Assembly (NCBI GenBank): GCA_038886995.1
Contig: JAWALG010000003.1
Coordinates: forward strand, 1-46,342
Length of the DNA: 46,342 bases
Direction: 5' to 3'
Source: Candidatus Iainarchaeum sp.
Lineage (GTDB): Archaea; Iainarchaeota; Iainarchaeia; Iainarchaeales; DTGL01
The position numbers were made by a program, and so were the translations under genes. The notes beneath the pieces were generated by a model. The model worked only from the letters and a program-made list of their open reading frames with translations, was not told where the DNA came from and did no database searches. Below are positions 4,052 to 36,900 of the stretch, piece by piece (the stretch's first letter is position 1; each line of letters begins with the position of its first letter).

Positions 4052-5143
4052 ATGCTTGTTAAAGTTGGTAAAACTAAAAAATGGTTTACTGCGAGTTGGT
4101 TTGAAAAGGGCACTGTGAAGGTGATTGATCAGAGGTTGCTTCCTTTTGAGTTCAACATAATAACTCTTAAGAACCACAGGGAAACTGCCTCTGCAATCAG
4201 GGACATGGCTGTAAGAGGTGCTGGGTCAATAGGTGCTGCTGCTGCTTTTGCTTGCGCACAGGCGGTTCTTGAATGCAAGCAAGAGAAAAATTGGATGGCA
4301 AAAGTTTCTGGCTCTTTTCAAACAATTGCAAAAACAAGGCCCACTGCAAGAGACCTTTTTTATGCGGTTGAACGCATAGGGGAAAATATTTACGGGAAAA
4401 ATTTGCAAGAAGCAAAAAAGGCAGCGGTTGATGAGGCCATAAAGATTGGAAGAGAATATGAAAAAAATGGCAAATTGATAGGCAAGCATGGATCAAAGCT
4501 CATAAAAAATAATTATGGAATTCTAACTCATTGCAATGCTGGTTGGCTAGCGCTTCATGATTGGGGCTCTGCTTTAGCACCAATGTACTTTGCAAAGCAT
4601 TCTGGAAAAAGATTTTTCGTTTTTGTGGATGAGACAAGGCCTAGGCTGCAAGGCGCAAAGCTTACATCTTGGGAGCTCCTCAATGAAGGTATCAAGCATG
4701 CGATAATAGCAGACAATGCTGCTGGCTTCTTTATGCAGCAAGGAAAAATTGATATTTGCATTGTTGGTGCTGACAGGATTGCTTCAAATGGTGACTTTGC
4801 AAACAAGATTGGCACATACGAGAAAGCGGTCCTTGCAAAAGAAAACGGCATTCCTTTTTATGTTGCTGCACCAAAAAGCACCTTTGATTTGGAATGCAAA
4901 AACGGAAGAAATATAGAGATAGAACATAGGCCTAGCGAAGAATTGCTTTTTGTGGATGGGTTTGACGGACGCCAAAGGAAGGTAAGAGTTGCGGCTTTTG
5001 GGGCTGAAGCATTAAACCCAGTGTTTGATGTTACGCCTGCAAAGTATGTTAGTGGCATAATAACTGAAAAAGGCATAATTAAGCCGAAAAAAAGCGATAT
5101 AAGAAAGGTGTTGAGGTTTGAGAAAAGACATCGTGCCGAGTGA
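4052..5143 (+). CDS. mtnA: S-methyl-5-thioribose-1-phosphate isomerase (eIF2B-related family)
   Basis: IDQRLLP, VRGAG, RPTA, THCNAG, DETRPRLQGAKLTSWEL, GADRI, NKIGTY, NPVFDVTP. Confidence 0.88.
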   Translation: MLVKVGKTKKWFTASWFEKGTVKVIDQRLLPFEFNIITLKNHRETASAIRDMAVRGAGSIGAAAAFACAQAVLECKQEKNWMAKVSGSFQTIAKTRPTARDLFYAVERIGENIYGKNLQEAKKAAVDEAIKIGREYEKNGKLIGKHGSKLIKNNYGILTHCNAGWLALHDWGSALAPMYFAKHSGKRFFVFVDETRPRLQGAKLTSWELLNEGIKHAIIADNAAGFFMQQGKIDICIVGADRIASNGDFANKIGTYEKAVLAKENGIPFYVAAPKSTFDLECKNGRNIEIEHRPSEELLFVDGFDGRQRKVRVAAFGAEALNPVFDVTPAKYVSGIITEKGIIKPKKSDIRKVLRFEKRHRAE

Positions 5144-5651
5144 GGAAGAGTGTCTTAAGATACTAAAGGCACACGATGTGCCAGAGAACATAATAAAACA
5201 CTCAATTAAAGTAAAAGAGCTTGCGCTTGAAATATGCGAAATGCTAAAAAGCCGTGGCATAGAAGTGAATGAAAAGCTTGTCGTTGCTGGCGCATTACTT
5301 CACGACTTAGATAAAGCAAAGACACTAAATTCTGAAAAAGGGTACCACGGAAAGGTTGCGGCAGAAGAACTTGAAAAGCTCGGCATGAAAAGTGTTGCTA
5401 GCATTGTTAGAAAACACCTTCTTGAGAACCTACTGCGTGGCGAGATAAAAACGATTGAGGAAAAAATAATATTCTATGCGGATAAAAGAGTGCAAGACGA
5501 TAAAGTGGTAAGCTTGGATGAAAGGTTTGAATACTTGAAAAAAAGGTATGGTTTAAAAGACAGTTCAATTATGAAAATTATATGTGAAAGCTACCCAAAA
5601 GTTGTTGAGCTTGAAAAGGAGTTGGTTAGTTGGAAAAAAAGCTTAAGTTAG
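5118..5651 (+). CDS. HD-domain metal-dependent phosphohydrolase
   Basis: H...GALLHDLDK...H...H...YADKR pattern. Confidence 0.85.
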   Translation: MRKDIVPSEEECLKILKAHDVPENIIKHSIKVKELALEICEMLKSRGIEVNEKLVVAGALLHDLDKAKTLNSEKGYHGKVAAEELEKLGMKSVASIVRKHLLENLLRGEIKTIEEKIIFYADKRVQDDKVVSLDERFEYLKKRYGLKDSSIMKIICESYPKVVELEKELVSWKKSLS

Positions 5652-6160
5652 TGCTTATTGAGTTGATACTGCTTTGTGCGCTCATGGCTGGCGGCATTGT
5701 CAGTGAATTAAGTGGCAACCAATATTTAATTTTTTATGCAATGGCTTGCGTTGTTGCATTTGTTGCAGTTCTTTATTTGCTTAAAAGGGAAACCGGGCCT
5801 GATTTTTGGAGATATGCTGCATACTTTTTTATTATGCTCTTGCTCGTTATCTATGCATTAATTGCTGTTCAGTCACTTAGGGAAAACCTGTTGGATTTGA
5901 GACCTGTCCTTTTGGTAATTATTGGCCTTTTATCCGTAAACCTGATATTTAGGTCTTTTTTTGCAAAGGACTTTGTTGATGGCAAAGTGTTGCTCTGTGA
6001 TGGTGAGCTTGCTGCTGTCGAAATTGGGTTTGACCTTTTTGCAGCTGTAAATCCTGGAAAATACATAGTGCAATGTGACAAGAAGTTCAAAAAGGGAGGT
6101 ATTGTCAAGGTAAAAATAAAAAAAGGTTTCTTCAAAAGAGTGCCAGAAAAGGCCTATTAG
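5630..6160 (+). CDS. Membrane protein, DUF2101-like
   Basis: Four TM helices, then a soluble beta-rich tail (DGKVL...VEIGFDLFAAVNPGKYIV...GGIVKVKIKKGFF...P) resembling archaeal DUF2101. Confidence 0.6.
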   Translation: MEKKLKLVLIELILLCALMAGGIVSELSGNQYLIFYAMACVVAFVAVLYLLKRETGPDFWRYAAYFFIMLLLVIYALIAVQSLRENLLDLRPVLLVIIGLLSVNLIFRSFFAKDFVDGKVLLCDGELAAVEIGFDLFAAVNPGKYIVQCDKKFKKGGIVKVKIKKGFFKRVPEKAY

Positions 6161-6198
6161 ATATGAAATAAAATATTTTTGTTTTAGATGAATATTTA

Positions 6199-6561
6199 AT
6201 GCTGCTGAGAGAGTGCCTAATAGGCAGAATTGCTTTAGTTTGCGCCATAGCTGGCATTATTTTGCTTTTTGTATACTCCAGCACAGAGTCACCAGTCAAA
6301 ACAAAAATATCTCAAATAAATCAAAGAAGCGTTGGCACTAAAGTTGAAGTAGACGCATTTGTGTCATCAAGCAGGGTTTCAAATAATGTCTTGATTTTTG
6401 AGCTTGATGATGGGGCAAAAATTTTAGGTGTCTATTTTAACCCGGGGATTGAGGAAAAAATTATTTTGAGGAAGGGCAACTTCGTGCGCGTATTTGGAAG
6501 AATAAGTGAGTATAAAGGCAGTATTGAGATCGTTGCAGAAAAGGTGTTGCTTCTTGATTGA
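6199..6561 (+). CDS. Membrane-anchored OB-fold nucleic-acid-binding protein
   Basis: N-terminal TM helix, then an RPA/tRNA_anti-type OB pattern (GTKVEVDAFV...FELDDG...KGNFVRVFGRISEYKGSIEIVAEKV). Confidence 0.75.
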   Translation: MLLRECLIGRIALVCAIAGIILLFVYSSTESPVKTKISQINQRSVGTKVEVDAFVSSSRVSNNVLIFELDDGAKILGVYFNPGIEEKIILRKGNFVRVFGRISEYKGSIEIVAEKVLLLD

Positions 6562-7735
6562 GCTTCTCATTTGGATTTTAGCAGGTTGTTGCTGTGGGGT
6601 TATAACAGGAACATTACCTGGCCTTCATGTAAATACTCTAGCTTTCCTTCTTATGCTCGCTTTTGCAGATATGCCGACAGGAATTGCTGCCTTTATTGTT
6701 TCAATGGCTGTCACTCATAGTTTCTACGATTTTATTCCAAGCATAGTTCTTGGTGTTCCGGATGAAGACAACTACCTTAGCGTATTACCTGGCCACAGGT
6801 ACTTTTTAAAAGGTCTTGCCTATAAGGCAATAATGCTCACAGCCATTGGTGGCCTTTTAGGGACTATTTTTCTTTCGTTGATTGCACCATTATTCATCTT
6901 TTTTGTTGAAAATGCAAAGAACTTTATGCCAATTTTCATACCGTGGATACTTGTTCTTGTATTGGTTTTAGTTGTTCTTGCTTCGAAGCGAAAAGCACAG
7001 ACGGCTTTTGTAGTACTAATGTCTGCGCTTTTGGGCATAGCAGTCATTACTAATTTGTCAATGAAAAATGGTGTAACGGCTATTGTTTTGGGGATTTTTT
7101 CTATGAGTACTCTTCTGATATCACTTTCAGGAAGAAGTTGCTTGAGAAAACAAAAACTATACTTGGGAAAGATGGGGGCAGAAAACGCATTACAGGGTTC
7201 TTTGCTTGCTGTGATTGGCTCCGCTATTGTTTCAGTGCTTCCAAGCATGGGGCCAAACCATGCTGCCTTTATCTTGAGAAAGATCTTTGGCAAAATAAAA
7301 AATGAGGCATATATGGTTATGATTGGAGGAATAAACACTTGCAACCTGCTTTTTTCACTCTTAGTTCTGCAGATGGTTGGGAAAACGAGGACTGGAGTGG
7401 CGCTTGCGTTAAGGCCTTTTGTGGAAAATAATTCGAATGCGCTTATTCTTTTCGTTGGTGTTGGTTTTGTTGCAGCGTCTTTTTCAGTGATAAGCATAAG
7501 CTTTATAGCAAAACAGATACTGAAAAACCTGCCAAAAGTGCCCTACAAGAAATTGAATGCAGCAACATTTTTTGGAATATGTGTTTTTATACTGCTTTTT
7601 GGCGGCCTCTTTGAGCTTATTGTCTCACTTGTGGCCTGTGCAATTGGCATCTATGCAGCGACAGCAAAGGTTGCAAGAAGCAGTTGCATGGCTTTTTTAA
7701 TTGTGCCAACCATTATAGTGTACTTGGGTCTTTGA
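6554..7735 (+). CDS. TctA-like (DUF112) multi-pass membrane permease
   Basis: GTLPGLHVN, DFIPSIVLGVP, SVLPGH motifs and many TM helices. TTG start at 6554 with an AGGTG SD. Confidence 0.82.
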   Translation: MIELLIWILAGCCCGVITGTLPGLHVNTLAFLLMLAFADMPTGIAAFIVSMAVTHSFYDFIPSIVLGVPDEDNYLSVLPGHRYFLKGLAYKAIMLTAIGGLLGTIFLSLIAPLFIFFVENAKNFMPIFIPWILVLVLVLVVLASKRKAQTAFVVLMSALLGIAVITNLSMKNGVTAIVLGIFSMSTLLISLSGRSCLRKQKLYLGKMGAENALQGSLLAVIGSAIVSVLPSMGPNHAAFILRKIFGKIKNEAYMVMIGGINTCNLLFSLLVLQMVGKTRTGVALALRPFVENNSNALILFVGVGFVAASFSVISISFIAKQILKNLPKVPYKKLNAATFFGICVFILLFGGLFELIVSLVACAIGIYAATAKVARSSCMAFLIVPTIIVYLGL

Positions 7736-8100
7736 TGCTAAAGATAAAAAGGCAGGTGTTGGATGGTATTGCTGAAGCAGCAAAAAACACTTATCCGAGG
7801 GAGTTCTTTGCGCTGCTTGGAAAGGATAAAAAAGGTGTTATTGAGGAGCTAATAATTGTTCCTTCAACATACGGCAAAACACATGTTTTGGTTAAATCGC
7901 ACTTGATACCAATAGATTCTAAGATAGCTGGTTCGGTGCATTCACACCCAATCAGCTCATTGAAACCAAGCAAAGAAGACATAAGTTCATTTCCAAATTT
8001 TGGAGAAGTACATTTAATTATATCTTGGCCTTTTCGTATTGAGGATGTGAAAGCTTACGATGTGTTTGGCAAGGAAATTCCTTGGGTGATAGTAGAATGA
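7735..8100 (+). CDS. JAMM/MPN+ (JAB) metalloprotease
   Basis: YPREF...GSVHSHP...PSKED. The ATG overlaps the upstream TGA. Confidence 0.88.
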   Translation: MLKIKRQVLDGIAEAAKNTYPREFFALLGKDKKGVIEELIIVPSTYGKTHVLVKSHLIPIDSKIAGSVHSHPISSLKPSKEDISSFPNFGEVHLIISWPFRIEDVKAYDVFGKEIPWVIVE

Positions 8101-9657: not shown

Positions 9658-10086
9658 ATGCCTTCGAAAGACCTGCATAAGAATTGTAAGGGGCAGCTAA
9701 CAATAGATTTTCTCTTGGCATTTCTCTACCTTATAATTTTGATAGATTCACTGCTAATCATAAACAAAAACTACATTCAGAACCAAAATGAGATGCTGAT
9801 AAGGCTTCAAGAGAAAAGAATTGCTTACACTATCGGTGAAATGATTAATGCTAGCAGCATTCTATCTGACGGCTCCTCAGAGGTAAAGTTTATTGTTCCG
9901 GGTATAAGGCATGTAAATAAAACAATGCCAATGCCTTGTAGTATAAACATAGGTAATGACTACATAGAAGTATCAACAGATGTGAATGGACAAAACATTG
10001 CTGAGAGGTTAAGCATTGTAAGGCCTACAACCGCAATAGTTACTGGCAACAAATGCAATAGCGAGTTAATCATAAGGTATACTTAG
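9658..10086 (+). CDS. Pilin-like protein with class III signal peptide
   Basis: KNCKG/QLTIDFLLAFLYLII: basic leader, Gly at -1, Gln at +1, acidic residue at +5, hydrophobic helix. Confidence 0.72.
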   Translation: MPSKDLHKNCKGQLTIDFLLAFLYLIILIDSLLIINKNYIQNQNEMLIRLQEKRIAYTIGEMINASSILSDGSSEVKFIVPGIRHVNKTMPMPCSINIGNDYIEVSTDVNGQNIAERLSIVRPTTAIVTGNKCNSELIIRYT

Positions 10087-10098
10087 CGAGGTGCACAG

Positions 10099-10641
10099 AT
10101 GAAAAAGCACGGATATATAGCCAGTGTTGATATAATGCTTTCAACAATTCTATTGATGTTTGCAATTGGCTATGCATATAGAGTTTCTGAGGGAAACTTC
10201 TATTCACTTAAACAGGATGAACTCTATGAAGAGCTTAGACTTTTTGGCAGTACAGCAGCAGAGCTATTGATAAGTTCACCAGAAACCACGTGCAGATGCT
10301 CTGTGCTAGCAGGTACAAGCCCTGGTGACCCCCATTACGTTATGAATTGCTTAGATACATCCAAGCTCGCCAGCTTATCATCAAACCCAGATGACCTTAA
10401 AAGGGCACTTAAATTGCCACCAGCAAGATTTGGTCTAAGGGTAGAAATTCTTAAAGATAGAAGCACTGTAGTTGGTAATTATGGTGAATCTGTGCCTGCG
10501 GAAGCGGCAAACACATATTCTGAGGCCCGGCCAGTAATAATAAACGCTGGTGACATAACAAAAGGGCTGCTATTGAAGTGTATTTCGGGTCAAGAAACAT
10601 GTGAACGGCATGTCGCAAAAATTACTGTTTGGAGGAAATAG
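10099..10641 (+). CDS. Minor pilin-like protein
   Basis: MKKHG/YIASVDIMLSTILLMFAIG followed by a Cys-containing extracellular domain. Confidence 0.68.
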   Translation: MKKHGYIASVDIMLSTILLMFAIGYAYRVSEGNFYSLKQDELYEELRLFGSTAAELLISSPETTCRCSVLAGTSPGDPHYVMNCLDTSKLASLSSNPDDLKRALKLPPARFGLRVEILKDRSTVVGNYGESVPAEAANTYSEARPVIINAGDITKGLLLKCISGQETCERHVAKITVWRK

Positions 10642-10642
10642 G

Positions 10643-11002
10643 GTGTTAATTGTGGAATTTGATAGATTTAGTTTTGGGTCTAGTAAGCGTGGCTTTATAT
10701 TTACTCTTGATAGCATTGCTGCAGCGTGCTTAATAACCCTCTTAGCAGTGACATGGTCGATTTCAGTGAGATCAAAGGACAGCGAGCCATACTATACTTA
10801 CATGGAAAAAATTGCAAGGGATGAATCATTGGTAAACATATACACATCAAACACTGGCTACGATGACTTTTTGCCGAATGACCAGAACGCTAACATAAGC
10901 TGCAAAAAATACTTTGTTGTGAAGGAGAATAATCGGCGCGATGAGAAAGATGTCAACACCTATATAAAATGCGTTTATGATATCTTGGTGAGATTGCCAT
11001 GA
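10643..11002 (+). CDS. Minor pilin-like protein
   Basis: KRG/FIFTLDSIAAACLITLL. Start uncertain (GTG 10643 after GGAGG, or GTG 10652). Confidence 0.68.
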   Translation: MLIVEFDRFSFGSSKRGFIFTLDSIAAACLITLLAVTWSISVRSKDSEPYYTYMEKIARDESLVNIYTSNTGYDDFLPNDQNANISCKKYFVVKENNRRDEKDVNTYIKCVYDILVRLP

Positions 11003-11586
11003 ACTCTAAAGGTGCAATATACTCCATAATGACTGCAGCACTTGTTATGGTTACAATTGCTTTAGTAATGCATTCAAATATTTCTGCTCTTAACCAGGAA
11101 CGTTATGCTGCTTACACAAATAATATGTCAGACCTAAAACGCCATTGGCAAAATGCAAGGTTAGTTCTAGATAAAATTGCTGGTGAGGCCCTGGCTGATT
11201 ATGTAAGAGACCAAAATTTAACTGGATCGGCTTGTGATGCATCATTAATCTCGCAGCCGGGCGCCCAATCCAAAGTAGAAGAGTACATGACATATGCGCT
11301 AAACAAAATGATGGGTGAAATAAAAGGCGAGATGAACTGTAGAACAGAGAATTTTAGCTATAATCCGGCGGCTGGTGGGACAACTCAGTCGGCCTCAGTT
11401 GCAATATCGTTTACCTTGACTTGTGAGCAGACTACAAAAAAAGGTGCCAGCAACGAAAACGCTTTTTACGTAAGTTATGCTAAAAATGTTAATTTCAATA
11501 AGAGGGTCGAAGCAGTAAGCCCTGACTGCATAGTCATAGCATACGATGCACAGTCGAACACTATTGATGCAAATACTTGGTATTAA
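10999..11586 (+). CDS. Minor pilin-like protein
   Basis: MNSKG/AIYSIMTAALVMVTIAL, several N-x-S/T sequons and Cys residues, ATGA overlap with the upstream gene. Confidence 0.62.
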   Translation: MNSKGAIYSIMTAALVMVTIALVMHSNISALNQERYAAYTNNMSDLKRHWQNARLVLDKIAGEALADYVRDQNLTGSACDASLISQPGAQSKVEEYMTYALNKMMGEIKGEMNCRTENFSYNPAAGGTTQSASVAISFTLTCEQTTKKGASNENAFYVSYAKNVNFNKRVEAVSPDCIVIAYDAQSNTIDANTWY

Positions 11587-16971: not shown

Positions 16972-17364
16972 TTATCTTGCACTTAGTTCGTACCATTCAA
17001 CCTTTTTTTCTTGTACAAGCTTTTTTATTCTCTTTTCTCTATCGCTAAGCTTTGAGTCTGCAAACTTAAATTCACAGAAGTATATGCAGTCGTCACAGAA
17101 AGCAATACCATCAATAGGTGATCCTAAAAACCTGAAGTTTTCTGGATCAAATGGGAATTCTTTGCTAAATGGAAGCCACTGCTCAGCAATTAGGCCATAG
17201 CGCACGCTTTGCGACTTCTTGTCATAGCTTAGCTCAGACAATCTTTGGTCCAAGTATTCAGCACGCTTGTAAATAAGGAATGCAATTAAAGATACCGCGA
17301 CTAAAAGAAAAATAAGAATAACAATGATGAATTCAATCATAAAACCATTATGGCTGATTACCAT
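16972..17364 (-). CDS. Membrane-anchored Holliday-junction-resolvase-like PD-(D/E)xK nuclease
   Basis: N-terminal TM; G-x-I-A-E-Q, FRFLGSPIDGIAF, FCEFK, LSDREKRIK. Confidence 0.75.
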   Translation of the reverse strand: MVISHNGFMIEFIIVILIFLLVAVSLIAFLIYKRAEYLDQRLSELSYDKKSQSVRYGLIAEQWLPFSKEFPFDPENFRFLGSPIDGIAFCDDCIYFCEFKFADSKLSDREKRIKKLVQEKKVEWYELSAR

Positions 17365-25955: not shown

Positions 25956-28346
25956 ATGATAAAAAGAGTTCTGATTGAAAATTGGCGCTCGCATAAGAGA
26001 ACAGAGCTTGAGTTTGAAAAAGGCAGCAATGTCCTGATAGGTCGTATGGGGGCTGGCAAAAGCAGTGTTCTCAATGCAATATGCTTTGCTCTTTTTGGCA
26101 CTTTCCCTGAACTGCAGCGCAGGGAGACCACTATTGAGAACGTAATAATGAGCAGACCTAATAAACAGGACTACGCTAAGGTATTGCTAGAATTCAGCTT
26201 TGAAGGCAAAAGTTATTCTGTGGAGAGAAAAATATATGCTGGAAACAAAACAAACGAGGCCAAATTATACTGTGATGGGAAGCTTGTTGCAGGGCCTAAA
26301 GTAAGCGATGTTAACAGCGAGGTTGAAAAAAGGCTTGGCATTGATTATGAGCTCTTTAGCCGTGCAATGTATGCGGAGCAAAACCATATTGACTATATAC
26401 TAAAGTTATCTCCTAACGAAAGAAAGGTCAGATTCGACCAGCTCCTTGACCTGGAGAAATATGAAAGGGTAAGAAAAAATGCAGTTACTCTTAGGAATAC
26501 CCTGAAAGCGTTATCAGAAGATAGAAAGGCAGCACTTTCTGAAATGAAAGCAATGTTCTCAGAGGATGAGCTGCTAAAGCTTCAGAAAGAAGCTGAAGAG
26601 GTTGAAAAGGTCATAGAGCAAAAAGGGTTGTTGCTAGAGGGTGCTAAAAAAGAGGTTGAAAAAGCAAGAGATGAGATGAACAAACTAATTGAAAAGCAGA
26701 AAAAATACTCTGAACTAAAAGAAAGGGCTGCACAGCTTAAAGGACACATATCAATGTTAAAGAAGGAGATTGAAAGGTATGAAAAAATGGTTGGAACTAG
26801 CGTTACTAACCTAAAAAAAGAATTTATTGAGGCAAAGATTAACGCCCTGCAAGACGAGGAAAAAAACCTTGCTAAAAAAGCAGACGAGTTAAATGAAATA
26901 AGAGCAAAAATTAGGGAGAAAAAGGCAAGGTTGGCAAGCTTAAATGAAGAAAGCGATCGCTTAAAAAGCACGTTGTTGAAAGAAGCAAAAGGTTTTGAAG
27001 AGGTAATGGAAAAGCTAAAGTGCAATGAGAAAGCGCTGCAGGATATTGAGTTAAAGATTGAATCTTTGAATAAAGAGAAGGCGAAAAGCGAAGAAGAGCT
27101 TGCAAAGATTAAAGAAAAAATAGAGGTTGAGAAGAGCAAAGCACATGAAGTTGAAGAAAAAATAAAGGAACTGGAGAAAGCTAAGGCGTTATGCCCAACC
27201 TGCAATCAAAAGCTTACTGAAGAGCACAAAAAGCGCCTGCTTAGCGAATTCAAGAAAATGATTGAAGATGGAAACTCCGGGATAAAAAGTTTGTCTGAGT
27301 CTGCCGACAAGCTCTCTGAAAAAATCAAAGAATATGAAAATGGTTCTGAAGAGGCTCGAAAAAAACAGAAGGCACTTATTGAAGAAAAGTCATTTTTGCA
27401 GGGCCTTAGCGAAAAGGCCAAAAGATTACAAGAAAATGAAAAAGCATCTGCTGAATTAATGAATGAAATTTCTAAATTGGAAGCCGAAGAAAAAAGCTTT
27501 GGCGATATCAAGGCAATGATTGAAGATACAAGAAGAAAATTAGATTCTGCAAAATCCGAGATTGAAATGATAAATTATGCGGAGATGCTAAAAGTAGATG
27601 AGGAAAAATTGGCGCTTGCAGAGAAGGAAGTTTCTGCGCTTGACTTTGATGAATCAAAGGCGCTTGATATAAAGGCAAACTTTGAGAGAAAAAATGCTGA
27701 GAAAAAGGCATTGGAAGATGCAATTGAATCGAATAAGTCAATTCTAGCTGAGAAAAAGCGCAGATTGGATGAACTTCAAAGAAGGAATCAGCAGATTAAA
27801 GCCCTTGAAGAAAAAATAAACGTTAGCGAAATGATGTCTGAGAAAATACTATTGTTCATAAATGCAATAAAATCTGCGCAATCAGAGCTTAGAGAAACAC
27901 TAATAGATGCTATAAACCAAGCTATGAACCAGCTTTGGGTAAGCATATATCCTTACAGCGATTACTCTGAGATTAAGCTATCTGCTTCCGAAACATACGA
28001 GCTTATGGTGAAGAGCAATGGCGAATGGATAAGCGTACAGGGTAACTTAAGTGGTGGTGAAACAAGTGTAGCAGCGTTAGTTTTAAGGATTTCAACATCC
28101 CTTGTGCTTGCTAGGCGCTTAAGGTTGCTTATACTTGACGAGCCAACCCACAACCTTGATGAAAGAACCATTGAAGTTTTGAGTGACCTAGTAAAAGAAA
28201 CTCTGCCGAAATTTGTGGAGCAGATATTTCTTATAACCCATGAGAAAGGCATGGAAAAAGCAGCAAGTGCAACATTGTACATGCTAAGCAAAGATGCAGA
28301 ACATGGCAACATTACAAAAGCAGAGCTCGTCTCTTTGGTATCTTAG
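25956..28346 (+). CDS. rad50: Rad50 DNA double-strand-break repair ATPase
   Basis: ENWRSH, Walker A GRMGAGKSS, coiled coil with central CPTC zinc hook, LSGGE, LILDEPT, LITH. Confidence 0.92.
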   Translation: MIKRVLIENWRSHKRTELEFEKGSNVLIGRMGAGKSSVLNAICFALFGTFPELQRRETTIENVIMSRPNKQDYAKVLLEFSFEGKSYSVERKIYAGNKTNEAKLYCDGKLVAGPKVSDVNSEVEKRLGIDYELFSRAMYAEQNHIDYILKLSPNERKVRFDQLLDLEKYERVRKNAVTLRNTLKALSEDRKAALSEMKAMFSEDELLKLQKEAEEVEKVIEQKGLLLEGAKKEVEKARDEMNKLIEKQKKYSELKERAAQLKGHISMLKKEIERYEKMVGTSVTNLKKEFIEAKINALQDEEKNLAKKADELNEIRAKIREKKARLASLNEESDRLKSTLLKEAKGFEEVMEKLKCNEKALQDIELKIESLNKEKAKSEEELAKIKEKIEVEKSKAHEVEEKIKELEKAKALCPTCNQKLTEEHKKRLLSEFKKMIEDGNSGIKSLSESADKLSEKIKEYENGSEEARKKQKALIEEKSFLQGLSEKAKRLQENEKASAELMNEISKLEAEEKSFGDIKAMIEDTRRKLDSAKSEIEMINYAEMLKVDEEKLALAEKEVSALDFDESKALDIKANFERKNAEKKALEDAIESNKSILAEKKRRLDELQRRNQQIKALEEKINVSEMMSEKILLFINAIKSAQSELRETLIDAINQAMNQLWVSIYPYSDYSEIKLSASETYELMVKSNGEWISVQGNLSGGETSVAALVLRISTSLVLARRLRLLILDEPTHNLDERTIEVLSDLVKETLPKFVEQIFLITHEKGMEKAASATLYMLSKDAEHGNITKAELVSLVS

Positions 28347-28348
28347 CA

Positions 28349-28546
28349 TTATTCTTTTGGCTGTGCAACTTTGATTAACCTTGCTATGTAACTTGCGGTT
28401 AGGTTTATCTCAAGCTTAGTAAGTTGCACTCCGAGCTCCTTCAAAGAGGCCTTATTTTTTTCAAAATCTGTGGAGAACTTTTCAGGATAAAGCTCCAGTA
28501 GCTCTTTTGCCCTGTTCTTGATTATCCTTGGAACTGCTTTGCCCAT
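28349..28546 (-). CDS. rps17e: 30S ribosomal protein eS17
   Basis: MGK...IK...ELLELYPEKFSTDFEKNK...N.TASYIAR. Confidence 0.88.
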   Translation of the reverse strand: MGKAVPRIIKNRAKELLELYPEKFSTDFEKNKASLKELGVQLTKLEINLTASYIARLIKVAQPKE

Positions 28547-28554
28547 AAAAACAC

Positions 28555-28758
28555 CTAAATTTCAACTTTTTCGAAAGTGCCATCAGCGTATGTCCTTATT
28601 ACGGCTATTGGCAAGACCTTTTGCTCAAACTCCTTCTTTGCTACACTTATTGGTGTTTCGTCTTTCTCCGGTTTTATTAGTGGTGGAGCCCCAAGCGATA
28701 GTTGCAACGCACGGGCACCAATAATCCTTGCAATTTCAAATCTTGTAAGCTTTTTCAT
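28555..28758 (-). CDS. rpoK: RNA polymerase subunit Rpo6 (K)
   Basis: LTRFEIARIIGARALQLSLGAP...LPIAVIR. Confidence 0.95.
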   Translation of the reverse strand: MKKLTRFEIARIIGARALQLSLGAPPLIKPEKDETPISVAKKEFEQKVLPIAVIRTYADGTFEKVEI

Positions 28759-28850
28759 AAGAACACCGCTAAAAGCAGATAATATTGAGATGTGTGTGGA
28801 AAGAATTAAAAAATTATATTTTTGCCTTTTTGAAGTAAAATCAAAGAAAT

Positions 28851-30386
28851 TTAAAGAAAAGAAAGCGCTTCACTGTCGGCTTCTGCCTTTTTACTTTCAA
28901 ATTTAATGGCTGCTTCCTCAAGTGTCTGTTCATGCTTTGAAGGCATTGAGCGCCTCTGCCTAACCTTAAAGAACATAGGGTAACCAACTGCTTCACCTAT
29001 AATTAGTGCCTCGCCAACATGAAGTGAGGTTATCAAATCCATGCTGTCTTGGTCTATGGCTTCTGCTGATTGCGCTATGTGCTTAAGGTCATAGGGGTTC
29101 ATTATCCTAAGGATTATCTTCGTGTTGCATTGGCTTAGCGTGGTAGTATCTAGCTGGACTGGCCTTTGAGAAATAAGACAAAGGCAAGCACCAAACTTGC
29201 GACCTTCCCTGGCAATAGCCCTTATTATACTACGCGATATGGCGTTTTCCTCTTTGGTTTTCTCGGGGCAGAACTGGTGGCTCTCTTCTATAACTAGCAG
29301 AAATGGGGGGATTTTGTTCTTACGCCTCAAACTGAAAAGCTCTTGTGAAAAATAGCAAAGAATCATCTGCTTTTTTCTTACGTCTAGAATATCTGAAAGG
29401 TCAATAACGGCAAGCTTGCCTGATTGCGCTATGTTGCTTATATTTGGAGAATCTATCTTTGAAAAAAGATGCAATGACTCCAAATCCTCAAGCCATGACA
29501 AAACAGCATCTTTTGTATTTTCTTTAATATCGGCATCTTTTATCTCTTTAATTATATCTTTCAAATCAAAAGGCCCAGCACCAGAGCCCATTTGTTCTTT
29601 CAGTTTTGAAAAAACCTTTTCGAAAGCCCTGCGCTGCACATTGCTAAGGCCTGAAGCAATTATTGATATGATCTTCGTGTTTAGGTTTGAAACGCCGATC
29701 CTTATGTTTGATCCTTTAATAAGAATTGTCCTATCGCTGTAGTCAGCATAGCCTTCCTCGGCTGGCTCTGCAAAGCAAGCATACTCACCATGTGGATCAA
29801 AAACAACGCAAGCAATTCTACCGAGTTCCTTCCCCCTGTCCAAGAGTTCTTCAAAAAGCACTGATGCACAATATGACTTGCCTGCGCCGCTTATGCTCAG
29901 TATTGCAAGATGCTTCTTAAGAAGCTTTGTCATGTTTAGCTTTACAGGCAGCTTGTGGGCCTCTACGTCGCCCAAATATAGGCCGCTTTTGTCTATATGG
30001 TAAAATTTCTCTAACAGCGAGTTATCTGCGGAAAAAACCTTGCTTCCTGGCGCAGGTGGTAAGCCAACTCTCTCAGATTTTTCTCCTGAAAAAAGCCCAA
30101 GCAGCTTGGCTTTTGCAACAGTGTATTCCCATTCGCTTGCCGGAAACTGTTCAAGTATCGAGGAACCTCTAAGCTCAAATTCCTTCACTGAGTCGGCTCT
30201 TTCAAAGTATTTATTGGTTTTGTAAATGCTCACAACAAGCGCAAGCAAAATGCCTTCTTCTGAATTGATTTTAACAAATTGCCCTTTTCGCACTTTGCTC
30301 GAGGTCAAAACGAATGTAAAGCTCTCTGTGCTGGGGGATTCCATTGTGGATATCACAATACCGAGATGCTCTTCATTTCCTTTCAT
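28851..30386 (-). CDS. herA: HerA helicase/translocase
   Basis: N-terminal HAS-like barrel, KHLAILSISGAGKS, FDPHGEY, IEESH, AREGRKFG, SQRP, LSQCNT. Confidence 0.9.
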   Translation of the reverse strand: MKGNEEHLGIVISTMESPSTESFTFVLTSSKVRKGQFVKINSEEGILLALVVSIYKTNKYFERADSVKEFELRGSSILEQFPASEWEYTVAKAKLLGLFSGEKSERVGLPPAPGSKVFSADNSLLEKFYHIDKSGLYLGDVEAHKLPVKLNMTKLLKKHLAILSISGAGKSYCASVLFEELLDRGKELGRIACVVFDPHGEYACFAEPAEEGYADYSDRTILIKGSNIRIGVSNLNTKIISIIASGLSNVQRRAFEKVFSKLKEQMGSGAGPFDLKDIIKEIKDADIKENTKDAVLSWLEDLESLHLFSKIDSPNISNIAQSGKLAVIDLSDILDVRKKQMILCYFSQELFSLRRKNKIPPFLLVIEESHQFCPEKTKEENAISRSIIRAIAREGRKFGACLCLISQRPVQLDTTTLSQCNTKIILRIMNPYDLKHIAQSAEAIDQDSMDLITSLHVGEALIIGEAVGYPMFFKVRQRRSMPSKHEQTLEEAAIKFESKKAEADSEALSFL

Positions 30387-30400
30387 AAAACCACCAAACA

Positions 30401-31459
30401 TTAGTCAAAGGGGCGCCTGTTTCTTCGCAGCGCAACATTAGCTGGCTGTAGCTTGCAAAGAACTTTATCCATAACTGCTTGAACTTCTTCCGGTTTCAAG
30501 CGTGCATGCAGGTCAGCTTCAAGCAGCACTGAAGGATAGCTGTACTCGCGATGACCTTTGCTAAGCGTATAAGCAACACTAGCAGCAGTATCAACACAAT
30601 TACTTAAACTTGATATTGATTTGGCTAAAATTTCTACTCTCAAAGGAATATCATACTTGCTTGACCTTATGTAAAACACAAAAATTTTTTCTGAGAGTTC
30701 TTTTTTTATATCCTTAAGTACTGGGTGCTTTGATGGGTCCCTTGAGTAAGGGAAAGCAAAAGTACGAGTACCTTCTTCCATAACATAGCTCAAAAGATTT
30801 GTGTCATAAACCAGGTTTTCTGAAGAAAGCCCCAGCATATCTTGGAGCATTGTGCCTTTCGAGTCCTCAACACATGCAATCAGCATCACCCCGGATTTAA
30901 GAGCGCATTCGTAGAGTTCTTCAAATGCCAAAAGTGTTTTTTCGTAAAGTGGCTTAAGGCAAGAATTTTCTCTTGGTTTGTCAGCATGCTGTGGCACTAT
31001 TGATCCATCAAGAAAGCAAAAGTCCGGTCTGAACTTTCTAATTGTTTCAGAAGCCACATTTGTTTCTCTTATGAGGCGCAATAAGCTCTTATTCACTGGA
31101 ATGTCTTCATTTTGCATTGCTTTAGTGCAAATTATTGGCTCAGGCATTGGAATTACTTTAGGCAAATACTCGGCTTGCTCCAGAGAATTGTTCTTGTAAG
31201 TAAAAACTGCTGCAACGGCTCTTATTAGGACTATCTCTATATTTAACAGGCTTATATTGGTAAAACCAGAATCAATCCCTGCAACCTTTGCATTTAGCTT
31301 TTGCTCTTTTATGGGAATGAAAAGCTCTTTGTCGGGTAAGGCAAGGTCACGAACTTTATTTGTTGACCCAGCAAGCTGTGATGCTAAAGCTTTCCTTTTG
31401 TTTTCTTCTTCGCTTATTAAACTAACTGCTTGATTCAAGGCCTCTTCAAAATGTTGCAT
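30401..31459 (-). CDS. nurA: NurA 5'-3' nuclease
   Basis: AGIDSG, FLDGSI, EDSK, LRVE, YSYPSVLLEADLHA; adjacent to herA. Confidence 0.88.
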   Translation of the reverse strand: MQHFEEALNQAVSLISEEENKRKALASQLAGSTNKVRDLALPDKELFIPIKEQKLNAKVAGIDSGFTNISLLNIEIVLIRAVAAVFTYKNNSLEQAEYLPKVIPMPEPIICTKAMQNEDIPVNKSLLRLIRETNVASETIRKFRPDFCFLDGSIVPQHADKPRENSCLKPLYEKTLLAFEELYECALKSGVMLIACVEDSKGTMLQDMLGLSSENLVYDTNLLSYVMEEGTRTFAFPYSRDPSKHPVLKDIKKELSEKIFVFYIRSSKYDIPLRVEILAKSISSLSNCVDTAASVAYTLSKGHREYSYPSVLLEADLHARLKPEEVQAVMDKVLCKLQPANVALRRNRRPFD

Positions 31460-31518
31460 AAGATATGCACGCTATGAAGATTTTTTTAAGTTTTTCCAGC
31501 CTGTTTTCCAGTGAATAC

Positions 31519-32802
31519 TCAGCGCTTGGTTATTTTTACTAGAACCCTGCTATTGCTTGTGCCAACATTTTCAATCACAAGCGTGTGAGTTCCTGGCCCA
31601 AGATGCAAGTCGCTATTTATGTCGATGGATGATCTTGAATAATCGAGGCCTGTCTGTACCTTATATGCGCTCTCAGCCGGATAGCAAAAAACTGGGTTGA
31701 CCCGTCTCAGGAAGTCGCCTTCCCTGTATGCGTAGCGGTTCTTTTCAATGGAATTGTATGTGCAAGGCCCAAAAACAAAGAAGAATTCTTTTCCATAGCC
31801 GGGAGTCCAAAAATGGGTTGCATAAAGGTTGAATACGCTTGGGTCAACATTTGTTATGTTCAGTTCATAGCATGAGCCAGTTGAGATAAGGCCGAAGAAG
31901 CTATTTGCTGACTGAAAGCCAGCATAGTCAATGTTAAGGCCTGATGTCAGAACTCTGCTTGTAACGCTGCCAACCTGAGTGCCATTTATGAAACTAGGGA
32001 TATAAAGGTTGTAGTCTCTATAATTACTACCAAGCTTTAGGCCAAAGGTGAAAGTATGTCCTGCGGATTTTAAGGCAGCGTAGCACTGCTTTATGTCTTC
32101 AGTATTGCCAGCGAGATCAACTGAATAGTATTCAATCAGGTGATTGCCATCCTGTGCAATGGCAACTATGTTGCCCGTCTGCCAAGAAGCCGAGTCAATG
32201 CGGTAGTATGTCCTACTACAGCCCGACTTTGCATCATTGCAATTTAAATTAACATTAAATGCAGTTGTCTGCCAACCGCTTGGAGCGTCATCTGTTGTTA
32301 TTGGTGCGTTGTTGTCAACCACAAAGTTTGAGTTGCTTGAAGCAGTACTACTGAGACCAGTGCCATCGTGTATATTGATATCTATAAAGTAGTTTCCATC
32401 TATTACTGATTCTGTATCCCACGAGTATGAGCAAAGGGTAAAGTCCTGGAAATTTGTATCACTGCAATTGAACAAGCTAGTGTTGAAAATATTACCATCT
32501 TTTATTATTAGATTGCTGAAGCCGCCTTTTGTTGAAGAATAATATATATCAATGAAAAGCGCTCCGTCTTCTATGCTACCTATATCTTCATCTTTTGCAT
32601 AAAAGTTTATGTCATATGACCCACTTATGTATTCGCCACCATTGGGCTTGACAAGCTCGACTGTCGGTGATGCAGCGCTTGCTGACAATGCTATAAAAAT
32701 TAAGGATAAGCATGAGATAAGCAGCATTTTTGAAAATAAATCTATTGTATTGGCTTTGAGGCAATTTTTGCACGAGCGCTTAATCCTTCTCTTGCTTTGC
32801 AT
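31519..32802 (-). CDS. Exported surface protein with Ig-like domains
   Basis: Hydrophobic N-terminal segment; PNGGE, YSWDT...DGNY, VDNNAPIT, DAKSG, DGNHLIEYYSVDLAGNTE. Confidence 0.7.
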   Translation of the reverse strand: MQSKRRIKRSCKNCLKANTIDLFSKMLLISCLSLIFIALSASAASPTVELVKPNGGEYISGSYDINFYAKDEDIGSIEDGALFIDIYYSSTKGGFSNLIIKDGNIFNTSLFNCSDTNFQDFTLCSYSWDTESVIDGNYFIDINIHDGTGLSSTASSNSNFVVDNNAPITTDDAPSGWQTTAFNVNLNCNDAKSGCSRTYYRIDSASWQTGNIVAIAQDGNHLIEYYSVDLAGNTEDIKQCYAALKSAGHTFTFGLKLGSNYRDYNLYIPSFINGTQVGSVTSRVLTSGLNIDYAGFQSANSFFGLISTGSCYELNITNVDPSVFNLYATHFWTPGYGKEFFFVFGPCTYNSIEKNRYAYREGDFLRRVNPVFCYPAESAYKVQTGLDYSRSSIDINSDLHLGPGTHTLVIENVGTSNSRVLVKITKR

Positions 32803-32889
32803 ATATTTCTATTAAAGTTATTTTATTAATAAACTTTGTTATATAACCAAAATCAAGTATTTTTAAACTATTTCGGGCAATTAGCTTTT

Positions 32890-34470
32890 ATGGAATACTT
32901 TGAGCATGCCCTTTTGAGGCCTAATGTGATTGAAAAGCGTGCATACCAAGAGCGCCTTGTAAAAAGCTTTCTTGAGAAAGGCAATACCCTCATAGTAGCG
33001 CCGACCGCGATAGGAAAGACCGTTATAGCAGCAGTTGTAACCGCACACTTTCTTGAAAGGGACAAGAATGTCCTTATGTTGGCACCAACTAAGCCACTTG
33101 CTGTTCAGCATAGTAAAAGCATGGTAAATTTTCTTAATGTGGGTGCAAAAAGCATTGTTCTTATTACTGGCTCAACACCTGCAAAAAAGCGCTCATTAGC
33201 ATACGCAGAGGCAAAATTAGTTTGTGCAACACCACAGTGTATTGAGAATGACATAAAGAATGGCTCTGTTGAGCTTAATAAGTTCGGCCTTTGCATATTT
33301 GATGAAGCACATAGGGCTGTTGGTGACTATGCCTATGTGTTCATAGGCAAAGAGTGCATAAAATCTGGTGTGAAAGTTCTTGCGCTAACTGCTTCGCCTG
33401 GCTATGAAAGGGAACACATTGAAGAGGTATGCAGAAATCTTAATATAAAAAACATAGAGATTGTAACTGAGCAAGACCCTGATGTAAAGCCATACCTGCC
33501 TGAGCTTAAGCTTGAGTGGGTTAGAGTTTCTTTGCCGGAAGATTTTGCATCTGTGCAATTGCTCCTGCGCCAGTATATTAGGGAGTCCGGTGAAGCACTA
33601 ATAAGGGCAGGTTTAAGAATGCGCAAGAATGATTTTTTCAACAGGGCTCGCCTATTAGAGATGCAAAAGAAGATTAGCTTCCAAATAGCAAAGAATGGGC
33701 GGAAGAGGCCTGCCCTTTATGGAATTGCCTCAAAGATTGCAGCCATAATAAAAGTAAACCATGCTCTGCTTCTTATAGAGACCCAAGGTGCCAATGCACT
33801 GATGAGTTACTTCGAAAGGTTGTATGAGAAAAGAAAGGTTGAAAGGGCAACCGCTGGCCTTTTCAATGATGCAAGGATAAAAAAAGCTGTTGAGCTAACA
33901 AAGGAATTATGCAATAAAAATGCTAAACACCCTAAGCTAATAAAGCTATTTGAGGTAATAACAGAGCAGCTATCGAGAAACCCCGAAAGCAGGATAATTG
34001 TATTTAACCATTACAGGGATTCTGTAGGTGAGCTGACTGAAGCGCTGAATTCGGTCCAAGGGATCCGCGCAAAGGCCTTTGTTGGGCAAGCGAAAAGATC
34101 CGGCACAGGAATGAACCAAAAAGAGCAAACACAAACCATAGAAGATTTTGAATCTGGAAAGTACAATGTTTTGGTCGCAACAAGCGTTGCTGAAGAAGGC
34201 CTTAACATACCTTCTTGTGATTTGGTTGTATTCTTCGAACCAGTGCCTAGTGAGATAAGGCAGATACAACGCAGAGGCAGGACTGCGCGCTTAAGAAGCG
34301 GTCGCGTTGTCATACTTATAACAAGAGACACAAAAGATGAATCTGCGTATTGGAATGCCCGAAGGAAAGAAAAAGGCATGTTTGAGCAGCTTAGGCAAAT
34401 AAAGAGAGATGGGCTTGAACAACAAAGCCGAATTACTGACTATGCCTTTTCAGGTGTCACGCGTGAGTGA
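32890..34470 (+). CDS. hef: Hef/FANCM-family SF2 helicase (helicase half)
   Basis: RAYQ, APTAIGKT, LAPTKPL, DEAHRAVGDY, LTASPG, HPKL, ATSVAEEGLNIP, EPVPSEIRQIQRRGRT. Confidence 0.92.
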   Translation: MEYFEHALLRPNVIEKRAYQERLVKSFLEKGNTLIVAPTAIGKTVIAAVVTAHFLERDKNVLMLAPTKPLAVQHSKSMVNFLNVGAKSIVLITGSTPAKKRSLAYAEAKLVCATPQCIENDIKNGSVELNKFGLCIFDEAHRAVGDYAYVFIGKECIKSGVKVLALTASPGYEREHIEEVCRNLNIKNIEIVTEQDPDVKPYLPELKLEWVRVSLPEDFASVQLLLRQYIRESGEALIRAGLRMRKNDFFNRARLLEMQKKISFQIAKNGRKRPALYGIASKIAAIIKVNHALLLIETQGANALMSYFERLYEKRKVERATAGLFNDARIKKAVELTKELCNKNAKHPKLIKLFEVITEQLSRNPESRIIVFNHYRDSVGELTEALNSVQGIRAKAFVGQAKRSGTGMNQKEQTQTIEDFESGKYNVLVATSVAEEGLNIPSCDLVVFFEPVPSEIRQIQRRGRTARLRSGRVVILITRDTKDESAYWNARRKEKGMFEQLRQIKRDGLEQQSRITDYAFSGVTRE

Positions 34471-35779: not shown

Positions 35780-36093
35780 AATCTTCTTTAAAAGATGAGA
35801 TGAAAAGCATTGCAATGCAAAGGATACGCAAGCTCTTTGATCTTGCTGAGAAAAATTTTAATGAAAAGCCAGAAAGGAGCAGGCGCTATGTGGAAATTGC
35901 AAGAAAGATAGCAATGCGCCACAACATCAGATTTGATTATGAGATTAAAAAAAAGTTCTGTAAGAAATGCGGTGCTTTTTTGCTTGTTGGTAAAAATGCA
36001 AAGATCAGAATTAGTAATGGCCTTGCAAAGGTTACTTGCCTTGAATGCGGATTCACGAGAAAAATATCATTGAAGAGGGAAAAGCAGGCCTAA
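35767..36093 (+). CDS. rnp4: Ribonuclease P protein component 4 (Rpp21)
   Basis: IAMQRIRKLF, SRRYVEIARKI, FCKKC, TCLECG. Confidence 0.92.
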   Translation: MGKVKSSLKDEMKSIAMQRIRKLFDLAEKNFNEKPERSRRYVEIARKIAMRHNIRFDYEIKKKFCKKCGAFLLVGKNAKIRISNGLAKVTCLECGFTRKISLKREKQA

Positions 36094-36900
36094 AAAACCT
36101 GGGAAGAGCCATGAAAGCAAGATTCCGAAGAGCAAGAAAGGCGCGAAAGGCGGCAAGTTTCTGTAAACTGGCACTTTCTTTATTCCCCTTGCTTCCAGAA
36201 GCTTTTTTTCTTTCTCGGAAAGCACGCCTTTAAATGAGCCGATAGCCTCGAGGGTATCTTTATCGAGATATTCCTTTGCAACTACTTCATCATCCTCAAG
36301 GTTCTTTAAGCTAACCCATTTCAAAAAAAGCTCTTCTTGTATCTGGCTTCTGAAAGCAATATAAATTAGTGAAATAAAAAGAGGCAATGAAATCACTAAA
36401 ATTGCAAATAAGCTTATTGCACTGAGCAAAAAGTAGAGCACATACAAGTAAGCCGCAATGAATAGGCCTAAGGCAAGGGCTTTAATTGACTCTTTATCAG
36501 GCCTTATCTTCTTTTTCTTTTTTGACATGAAAACCTTTATTATGCTAATCAAAGGTATCACAAAAGCGCTTGCTAAGGATGCAATTAGAACCACGCTTAG
36601 CACAAAGATTTGCCCTTTGTAGATTGGCAAAAGCAAAGACAAGCCAAGCAAAAACTTTACATCGCCGCCGCCAAGTTTGCCATTATAGTAAAGCAGATAT
36701 GTAAAAGCAAAAACGCATGCTGGGATTAAAAGAATTGTTGGATCTTCACCTAAAAAAAGGTCTGCTGCAGTGAAAATAGCACCAATGAGAATCATTGGAT
36801 AGGTAACCTTGTCATAAATCAGGCCTTTTTTTATGTCTGTGTACGCTGATATTATAGCACAAGCCAAAATTAAAGCAATGCGCAGCTCTTCAAAAAGCAT
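36067..36900 (-). CDS. Prepilin/preflagellin peptidase, A24 family
   Basis: YTDIKKGLI, GGGDVK, multiple TM helices, C-terminal PPFAPFL. Confidence 0.88.
   Translation of the reverse strand: MLFEELRIALILACAIISAYTDIKKGLIYDKVTYPMILIGAIFTAADLFLGEDPTILLIPACVFAFTYLLYYNGKLGGGDVKFLLGLSLLLPIYKGQIFVLSVVLIASLASAFVIPLISIIKVFMSKKKKKIRPDKESIKALALGLFIAAYLYVLYFLLSAISLFAILVISLPLFISLIYIAFRSQIQEELFLKWVSLKNLEDDEVVAKEYLDKDTLEAIGSFKGVLSEKEKKLLEARGIKKVPVYRNLPPFAPFLLFGILLSWLFPGFLGLLFPLQ

Follow-up and report, generated by a model that had tools for sequence, protein, structure and literature searches.

DUF2101, OB-fold and TctA-like permease genes of a DPANN archaeon as a candidate pilus-dependent DNA-uptake module

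How DNA passes the archaeal membrane is an open question, because archaea lack ComEC, and a small locus in the genome of a Candidatus Iainarchaeum sp. bears directly on it. In the 46,342-nucleotide (nt) stretch of DNA that we analysed in full, called here the window (contig JAWALG010000003.1 of assembly GCA_038886995.1, positions 1 to 46,342), three adjoining membrane genes on the forward strand, between 5630 and 7735, encode a DUF2101 protein, a membrane-anchored OB-fold protein and a TctA-like permease. An earlier annotation made from the letters alone, hereafter the sequence-only reading, had taken the trio for a DNA-uptake module that works independently of ComEC. The explanation that we favour, with a probability of roughly 0.55, is that the three genes are the version found in Iainarchaeota (DPANN) of the archaeal pilus-dependent DNA-uptake module, whose core of OB protein and TctA-like protein was defined in Methanococcus maripaludis. 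We prefer it because of the published genetics of this core pair, the pilus-operon context of the genes, the presence of two nucleic-acid-type barrels and the loss of TctB and TctC.

Gene identity and relation to a transformation pair

The three open reading frames (ORFs) lie where they had been placed and their family assignments hold. The DUF2101 gene (5630..6160, 176 amino acids, aa) belongs to a predicted membrane protein family of Pfam, PF09874, whose gathering score of 22 bits it passes at 38.6; the OB gene (6199..6561, 120 aa) matches PF01336 with 36.5 bits (cut-off 27), and the permease gene (6554..7735, 393 aa, arCOG04469-type) matches PF01970 over its full length with 134.7 bits (cut-off 28.9). 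NCBIfam gave no match over cut-off for any of the three proteins. Counted by a simple hydropathy window, they have four, one (N-terminal) and 11 transmembrane (TM) segments, respectively. The coupling of the genes is tight: the longest permease ORF (6506-7735) would overlap the OB gene by 56 nt, while the database gene call of 393 aa implies a TTG start at 6554, which still shares 8 nt with the end of the OB gene (stop codon at 6559-6561). An overlap of the two genes had been noticed in the sequence-only reading.

A pair of this kind has a known phenotype. In M. maripaludis, transposon mutagenesis in a screen picked out MMJJ_13020 (an OB-fold protein with one TM segment) and MMJJ_13030 (TctA-like, 11 such segments), and in-frame deletion of either gene abolishes natural transformation, which complementation restores (Fonseca 2023, PMC10133366). 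The same study reports that deletion of the TctA-like gene of Methanoculleus thermophilus likewise abolishes transformation, that a thermonuclease is required for it in M. maripaludis and that pilus genes are themselves essential, and the authors propose the TctA-like protein as a possible archaeal DNA transporter (PMC10133366).

We measured homology between this pair and that of the window on Methanothermococcus sp. Ax23 (Methanococcaceae; locus L070), standing in for M. maripaludis. Its OB gene overlaps its TctA-like gene as in the window; its permease shares 30% identity with ours (E 5e-42), and its OB protein (204 aa, one TM segment, PF01336 39.5 bits) aligns with the window OB protein. 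A TctA-family gene is present in 35 of 40 Methanococcales species genomes and is always single (split into two adjacent pieces in two of them), and since there is one such gene per genome the published M. maripaludis gene must be the orthologue of the Methanothermococcus permease. Both genes of the window can be aligned with the Methanococcales ones throughout. Homologues of the Methanothermococcus OB protein also occur in 35/40 genomes, and the two genes are concordant in 38/40 (both in 34, neither in 4, discordant in 2), being adjacent, by a reading of coordinates, in 14 of the 34 that have both. The link to Methanococcus transformation made in the sequence-only reading had included DUF2101; it stands for the OB and TctA-like proteins, through the deletions reported in PMC10133366, and fails for DUF2101, of which the one Methanococcales genome searched (Methanothermococcus) has 0 matches. 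No match was found in 14 control genomes either, and because of these two negative results we consider DUF2101 a lineage-restricted addition, outside the published system.

The permease itself stands apart from true TctA. A search with an alignment of seven permease sequences gave at least 600 matches, 580 of which were confirmed; from these we kept the best 80 loci (numbers with L denote these and further loci of the analysis), a choice biased towards relatives of the query and phylogenetically clustered, so that the locus counts below are not independent events. The comparison with bona fide TctA used two archaeal genomes with TctC-TctB-TctA or TctC-TctA clusters (L098, L099), whose TctA proteins, 498 and 513 aa long, reach 457 and 411 bits with PF01970, compared to 393 aa and 134.7 bits for the window permease. 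In a quick IQ-TREE phylogeny (LG+G4, 80 rows, the partial sequences L053, L058, L059 and L062 dropped) a branch of 1.28+1.28, with a value of 100 in the Shimodaira-Hasegawa-like approximate likelihood ratio test (SH-aLRT), divides these two bona fide TctA from every one of the 78 TctA-like rows. Residues H25, N27, H81 and R279 are invariant across the TctA-like clade and replaced in bona fide TctA, which carry in addition an extra C-terminal segment. The Methanothermococcus permease falls inside the archaeal TctA-like clade. A phmmer search of the window permease against PDB sequences returned 0 matches at E<=10.

The partner genes of a tricarboxylate transporter were not found in the host either. 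With profiles whose controls were positive in four and three genomes, respectively, TctC (PF03401) and TctB (PF07331) gave 0 matches each in the whole genome of the window, which is estimated to be 88.6% complete, a figure that qualifies all absences in that genome reported here. The lack of TctB and TctC partners, read at first from the neighbourhood of the permease, thus extends to the assembly, and the permease neither groups with the two bona fide TctA nor has a detected TctC elsewhere.

Against this background an importer of small solutes has to be weighed. In that case the permease would move a small anion (nucleotides, short oligonucleotides or a carboxylate), the OB protein would replace TctC and DUF2101 would replace TctB, and the loss of transformation in Methanococcus would be indirect or due to the uptake of processed fragments. 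The four TM helices of DUF2101 recall the small TctB subunit, a tethered binding domain in place of the missing TctC would be parsimonious, and the full-length PF01970 match assigns the permease to a family that transports small anions, for whose arCOG04469 members a carboxylate transporter role has been predicted (PMC5898192). However, the M. maripaludis mutants have lost plasmid transformation, for which long intact DNA is needed (PMC10133366), the invariant polar residues of the clade are not those found in bona fide TctA, and DUF2101 has no TctB match in a Pfam search, which did not include a comparison of profile with profile. Nor would such an importer easily explain why, as described below, the genes are consistently linked in operons with prepilin peptidase and pilins. 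We regard such an importer as unlikely.

Two further observations concern the distribution of the permease. In L034 (3225-4949), with equivalents in L037, L060, L072, L079 and L084, a gene of 557-647 aa of the SecD/SecF family, an identity Pfam-checked on L034 alone, takes the place of the OB gene directly upstream of the TctA-like gene; these loci are of Aenigmatarchaeota type. Besides, a tblastn search of 72,556 plasmids returned only two permease matches, both cyanobacterial. One of them, on plasmid pPg_03 of Pseudanabaena galeata (L089, 83937-85352), is an archaeal-type TctA-like gene (471 aa, 172 bits) with no OB, TctB or TctC neighbour that nests inside the archaeal clade beside Undinarchaeota sequences (SH-aLRT 93), and its position in the tree would be compatible with a possible inter-domain transfer.

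Conservation of the trio and its pilus-gene setting

A small single-TM OB gene, sought with a profile restricted to small ORFs adjacent to the permease, lies directly upstream of it in 38 of the 80 loci, across several phyla, and around these OB-linked loci pilus genes are common. A peptidase of the A24 family, searched for within 5 kb with a profile built from four Pfam-confirmed A24 peptidases, accompanies 17 of the 38 (16 upstream on the same strand, one downstream) and none of the 42 others; where 3 kb or more of upstream sequence is available, the figures are 13/25 and 0/33. Pilin-like ORFs, called by our own crude scan for class-III signals ([KRH]G followed by a hydrophobic stretch), which gives some false positives, occur in 22/38 OB-linked loci versus 4/42 others, and in 13 loci such an ORF ends within ~100 nt of the start of DUF2101 or OB. 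The co-occurrence with pilins and an EppA-type peptidase that the sequence-only reading had put forward as a test of its proposal therefore holds strongly in relatives. It had also been supposed for Methanococcales, where no pilus gene lies within 5 kb at the single locus examined.

The gene orders, confirmed with Pfam, make the embedding of the module in pilus operons explicit. In the Iainarchaeota locus L023 we read two T2SSF genes, three pilins with class-III signals, a peptidase with A24 and Arc_PepC domains, two more pilins, OB, TctA, JAB, iPGM, four pilin-like ORFs and ABCE1, and L025 has the same order. L012, of the same clade, presents T2SSF, peptidase, two pilins, DUF2101, OB and TctA. 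In another phylum, Candidatus Hydrothermarchaeum profundi (L045) has a peptidase, four pilin-like ORFs, DUF2101, OB and TctA. In Methanobacteriaceae, T2SSF is ~2.4 kb downstream of the permease in five loci; in Methanosphaera sp. (L086, 5001-10522) TctA is followed by two small ORFs with no assigned family, T2SSE, T2SSF and a 297-aa protein with OB and HD domains. Proteins of the latter kind (PF01336 plus HD, 295-297 aa) recur in L049, L064 and L080 and look like a nuclease partner. About three lineages with a pilus link can be counted as independent, namely Iainarchaeota, the group of Hydrothermarchaeota and Methanobacteriaceae.

The picture is similar in the phylum of the host, from which 201 genomes were sampled (the analysis as a whole covered 201 + 40 + 133 genomes and the 80 loci). 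A TctA-like gene is present in 154 of the 201 genomes of the phylum, and in 45 of the 58 of high quality, and an A24 peptidase in 199/201. In at least 60 of the 154 TctA-bearing genomes the peptidase is encoded on the permease strand, 1.9-3.5 kb upstream, a lower bound obtained by a hand count of coordinates among 150 of 425 peptidase matches listed.

Where DUF2101 occurs, it mostly stands next to the pair. It is found in 14/80 loci, each time directly upstream of the OB gene, and a match exists in 30 of the 201 genomes of the phylum, 24 of them over the cut-off. In 20 of these 24 it shares the strand of the permease and stands directly upstream, with a gap of 420-910 nt that, by the coordinates, fits an OB gene. 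The exceptions are genomes in which it is 2.1 kb away (G270), 4.4 kb away on the opposite strand (G233) or 32 kb away (G197), and one in which no permease was found (G145).

A compact genome can bring genes together by chance: gene density is high, and the unrelated HD, JAB and iPGM genes overlap in the same string as the module. The ATG of the JAB gene at 7735 shares 1 nt with the permease stop (TGATG at 7733-7737), there is a 4-nt overlap between the JAB stop and the iPGM ATG at 8097, and the end of the HD gene overlaps the DUF2101 start by 22 nt. Yet the adjacency of OB and TctA in 38/80 loci from several phyla, and the position of DUF2101 directly upstream in 20 of the 24 genomes of the phylum that have it over cut-off, are conservation counts because of which we consider chance juxtaposition effectively excluded. 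Against it speaks as well that in M. maripaludis one phenotype depends genetically on both members of the pair (PMC10133366).

The outer neighbours do not share this conservation. The HD-domain protein (5118..5651, + strand, PF01966 53.7 bits) is upstream in the three closest relatives only (L009, L010, L011), and the Prok-JAB/MPN protein (7735..8100, + strand, PF14464 31.1 bits) is downstream of the module in 15/80 loci, every one in the Iainarchaeota clade; we considered both as members of the module and kept them as mere neighbours. A scan for sigma-70 promoters and terminators stayed at background (28 sites vs 22.5±5.3 and 11 vs 8.5±3.0), a type of scan that is not applicable to archaea.

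The window presents a rearranged form of this neighbourhood. Here, as in L009-L011, the HD gene replaces the upstream pilus block, and the downstream JAB gene, iPGM and four pilin-like ORFs are retained. The cluster of four pilin genes that had been noticed about 2 kb downstream of the module is there, 1.9 kb away on the + strand (9658-10086, 10099-10641, 10652-11002 and 10999-11586); these consecutive ORFs have class-III-signal-like N-termini, similar to those in L009-L011, and are pilin-like by motif and by synteny with relatives, with no match in Pfam. The glycolytic mutase iPGM stands between them and the module, and the order of JAB, iPGM and four pilin-like ORFs is conserved in Iainarchaeota (L023, L025). 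The type IV prepilin peptidase of the window, a short form of Peptidase_A24 (36067..36900, - strand, PF01478 56.3 bits), lies 28 kb from the module, and the window also encodes one of the seven ATPases of the type IV pilus/archaellum family (T2SSE) in the genome (22328..23893, - strand, PF00437 133.8 bits).

The same setting would suit an accessory role in the pilus itself, in which the three proteins serve the assembly, anchoring, modification or retraction of one pilus class without touching DNA, and transformation is lost through a pilus defect. In many relatives the genes lie between prepilin peptidase and pilins on one side and further pilin-like genes on the other; in the available parts of PMC10133366, pilus genes are essential for transformation and no piliation result is given for the OB or TctA-like mutants. 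However, family f9 of the phylum keeps the A24 peptidase in 18/18 genomes and the TctA-like gene in 1/18, because of which pili evidently exist without the latter. In 20 of the 34 Methanococcales genomes that have both genes, OB and TctA-like are not adjacent, and the one locus examined lacks nearby pilus genes; besides, two nucleic-acid-type barrels have no obvious role in pilus assembly. We find an accessory function improbable for these reasons. Within f9, genus g14 has the TctA-like gene in 0/17 genomes, many of which are 92-96% complete, and the pattern looks like a clean lineage-specific loss.

Two barrels and a putative path for DNA

If the module takes up DNA, the OB protein is the obvious candidate to receive it. 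It consists of an N-terminal TM helix (residues 7-25) and one OB domain, and its AlphaFold model reaches a predicted local distance difference test score (pLDDT) of 95.8. Foldseek found 346 PDB matches to this model at E<=1e-3, led at E ~1e-6 by the anticodon-binding domains of AspRS and AsnRS and by RPA32 and Stn1, which bind single-stranded DNA (ssDNA); by sequence, phmmer gave weak RPA32 matches only (E 0.025). As modelled, the domain is a five-stranded nucleic-acid-type barrel, and we infer that it binds DNA. Such matches to nucleic-acid binders, and not to solute-binding proteins, are a further point against the small-solute importer. The sequence-only reading had gone further and cast the protein as a ComEA-like receptor, which the structure does not bear out: ComEA binds DNA through helix-hairpin-helix motifs, and the fold here resembles the OB domains that bind ssDNA and tRNA. 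A bacterial analogy for it would rather be the N-terminal OB domain of ComEC. The window protein aligns with 38 TctA-adjacent homologues, one of them from Methanothermococcus. The Methanothermococcus protein (L070:4345-4956) has some 70 extra C-terminal residues with several cysteines, and a Theionarchaea protein (L073:4037-4969) of 311 aa has two OB matches, because of which the putative receptor appears modular across lineages.

DUF2101 brings a second barrel. Its AlphaFold model (pLDDT 87.7) has four TM helices followed by a C-terminal five-stranded beta-barrel (residues ~112-176) with an isoelectric point (pI) of 9.5 and a net charge of +6, and this domain is strongly basic in 15/15 homologues (pI 9.5-10.4, net charge +5 to +11). 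The basicity of the barrel and the charges of the loops fit a cytoplasmic location, and therefore we place it, by inference, probably in the cytoplasm. Structure searches give little guidance as to its function: Foldseek found no PDB match at E<=1e-3 to the whole model, and the neighbours of the barrel (S1, cold-shock, IF1 and TRAM; E 0.026-0.18), like the TRAM rows of the Atlas (TM-score below 0.5), are leads only. A wide search with VIA-align returned generic helical-bundle matches alone (best Z 11.1), which is within noise for helical models and does not address the barrel. The Atlas clusters of the family come from Iainarchaeota and Methanobacteriota.

Put together, these parts would make a plausible route. 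A type IV pilus may bring DNA to the cell surface, where the membrane-anchored OB domain would take over a strand of nucleic acid; the TctA-like permease with its 11 TM segments, which has diverged within a family of small-anion transporters, could then carry the strand or its fragments across the membrane, and DUF2101, as a lineage-restricted third subunit, would handle the incoming strand with its basic TRAM/S1-like barrel, probably in the cytoplasm. The three proteins might form a physical complex; a prediction for TctA-like, OB and DUF2101 together scored 0.00 and 0.00, which is no answer and speaks neither for nor against binding. The retention of the TctA-like gene in 154/201 genomes of a phylum with reduced genomes counts in favour of uptake.

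Several observations weigh against the uptake module, beyond the bias in the choice of loci. Members of the TctA family are secondary transporters of small anions, and the family is not known to translocate polymers, nor is transformation known from any DPANN archaeon. In the window, the module lacks an adjacent peptidase and upstream pilins and is co-directional with the housekeeping genes HD, JAB and iPGM. An adjacent OB gene was not found in 42/80 loci, in five of which the upstream sequence is too short for a judgement. Nor is the OB ectodomain basic throughout its homologues: its pI ranges from 4.3 to 9.9 and exceeds 7.5 in 17/39 of them, and the charges flanking its TM helix do not decide its topology. 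The thermonuclease needed in M. maripaludis (PF00565) has 0 matches in the genome of the window. According to the accessible parts of PMC10133366, M. thermophilus has no clear OB homologue, and the missing piliation result leaves room for an indirect effect.

A bolder form of the proposal sees the archaeal DNA translocon as a machine of three parts, genetically tied to a competence pilus of its own, in which DNA passes from an outer OB receptor through a repurposed TctA-like permease to the basic DUF2101 barrel in the cytoplasm. We hold this only tentatively and would sooner bet against it. Were it true, the reduced-genome Iainarchaeota, about three quarters of which have the module, might be competent as a habit and scavenge DNA from the environment or from hosts, for purines and for recombination.

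The host and the known systems

The genome to which the window belongs (contig C3 in our numbering) is a metagenome-assembled genome (MAG) of 865,833 bp in 38 contigs, from an uncultured organism. A DPANN origin had been thought probable from the letters and is supported, because the permeases closest to that of the window, 58% identical, come from Candidatus Diapherotrites/Iainarchaeum MAGs and because the tree nests the window permease among them, as sister to the Iainarchaeum MAG L009 (support 97). The Competence domain of ComEC (PF03772) has 0 matches in this genome, its controls being positive in 10 bacteria, in agreement with the uptake independent of ComEC that had been suggested.

Pilus machinery is plentiful: T2SSE has seven matches in the genome, T2SSF nine and the A24 peptidase two, and ~25 pilin-like ORFs, called by motif, form roughly nine clusters. 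The pilus genes are spread over contigs C1, C3, C9, C13 and C24. On C24 a small major-pilin-like ORF (212-526), two T2SSF and one T2SSE form a string that ends at the contig edge and resembles the upstream half of the L023 operon.

As to the fate of incoming DNA, the genome offers hints in two directions. PurD (GARS_A, PF01071) was not found in it, with 14/14 control genomes positive, and a gene of the orotidine monophosphate (OMP) decarboxylase family is present (C7:25204-25842). One marker in an 88.6%-complete genome suggests that de novo purine synthesis is missing, and the resulting purine scavenging would suit a small-solute importer, while under the uptake reading DNA could itself serve as the purine source. 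The window also contains, at 25956-35146, a cluster for DNA repair and recombination with Rad50 (25956-28346, +), HerA (28851-30401, -), NurA (30401-31459, -), a Hef-like DEAD/Helicase_C helicase (32836-34470, +) and an ERCC4/XPF nuclease with a helix-hairpin-helix motif (34409-35146, +), as well as a Holliday-junction-resolvase-like endonuclease gene at 16972-17364 (-). Recombination machinery is therefore available for incoming DNA, which may be used in this way too.

The idea that OB and TctA-like proteins provide archaea with DNA uptake independent of ComEC is already in print (PMC10133366) and is not categorically new. What is new is that the form here has three genes, with DUF2101 among them, that relatives carry the module within pilus operons and that most genomes of a DPANN phylum have it; the literature that we searched holds no report of any of these three points, and no function, genomic context or mention of DUF2101. 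In no fewer than two phyla the pair lies within pilus operons, and in a third lineage it neighbours genes of the pilus motor, which is comparative evidence independent of the genetics. This setting contrasts with an earlier view of arCOG04469 (COG1784, pfam01970) as euryarchaea-specific, mostly stand-alone genes for possible carboxylate transporters (Makarova, Galperin and Koonin 2015, PMC5898192). The analysis nominates DUF2101, previously unconnected to this process, as a third component, and offers a gene signature with which competence could be predicted in uncultured archaea.

Among the systems to which the locus can be compared, the Methanococcales pair is the one that shares its two-gene order and Pfam families, a permease of ~400 aa with 11 TM segments and a genome that encodes type IV pili, and neither system has TctB or TctC. 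They differ in that the window pair is preceded by a third gene, DUF2101, that was not found in the single Methanococcales genome searched, in that the Methanococcales OB protein is longer (204 aa) with a Cys-rich tail, and in that Iainarchaeota relatives have the module within a pilus operon while the Methanothermococcus locus is solitary. A role in transformation is demonstrated for MMJJ_13020 and MMJJ_13030 and proposed by homology for the DPANN version. Compared to other DUF2101 proteins, the Iainarchaeota form is short: its 176-197 aa lack the N-terminal ~60 residues of the form of Hydrothermarchaeota and Methanobacteriota (229-254 aa), whose Hydrothermarchaeum homologue scores 109.7 bits against PF09874.

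With the bacterial-type TctABC transporters from the TTT (tripartite tricarboxylate transporter) family, the likeness is confined to the full-length TctA match of the permease, which has 393 aa and 11 TM segments instead of the ~500 aa of TctA, belongs to a separate clade with other invariant polar residues and comes from a genome in which TctB and TctC were not detected. The bacterial machinery of ComG or type IV pilus, ComEA and ComEC is alike in outline, combining a pilus, a nucleic-acid-binding domain at the surface and a polytopic membrane protein, each of which transformation requires. There is, however, no sequence relationship between it and the archaeal module, in which the OB domain forms a separate protein with a single TM helix.

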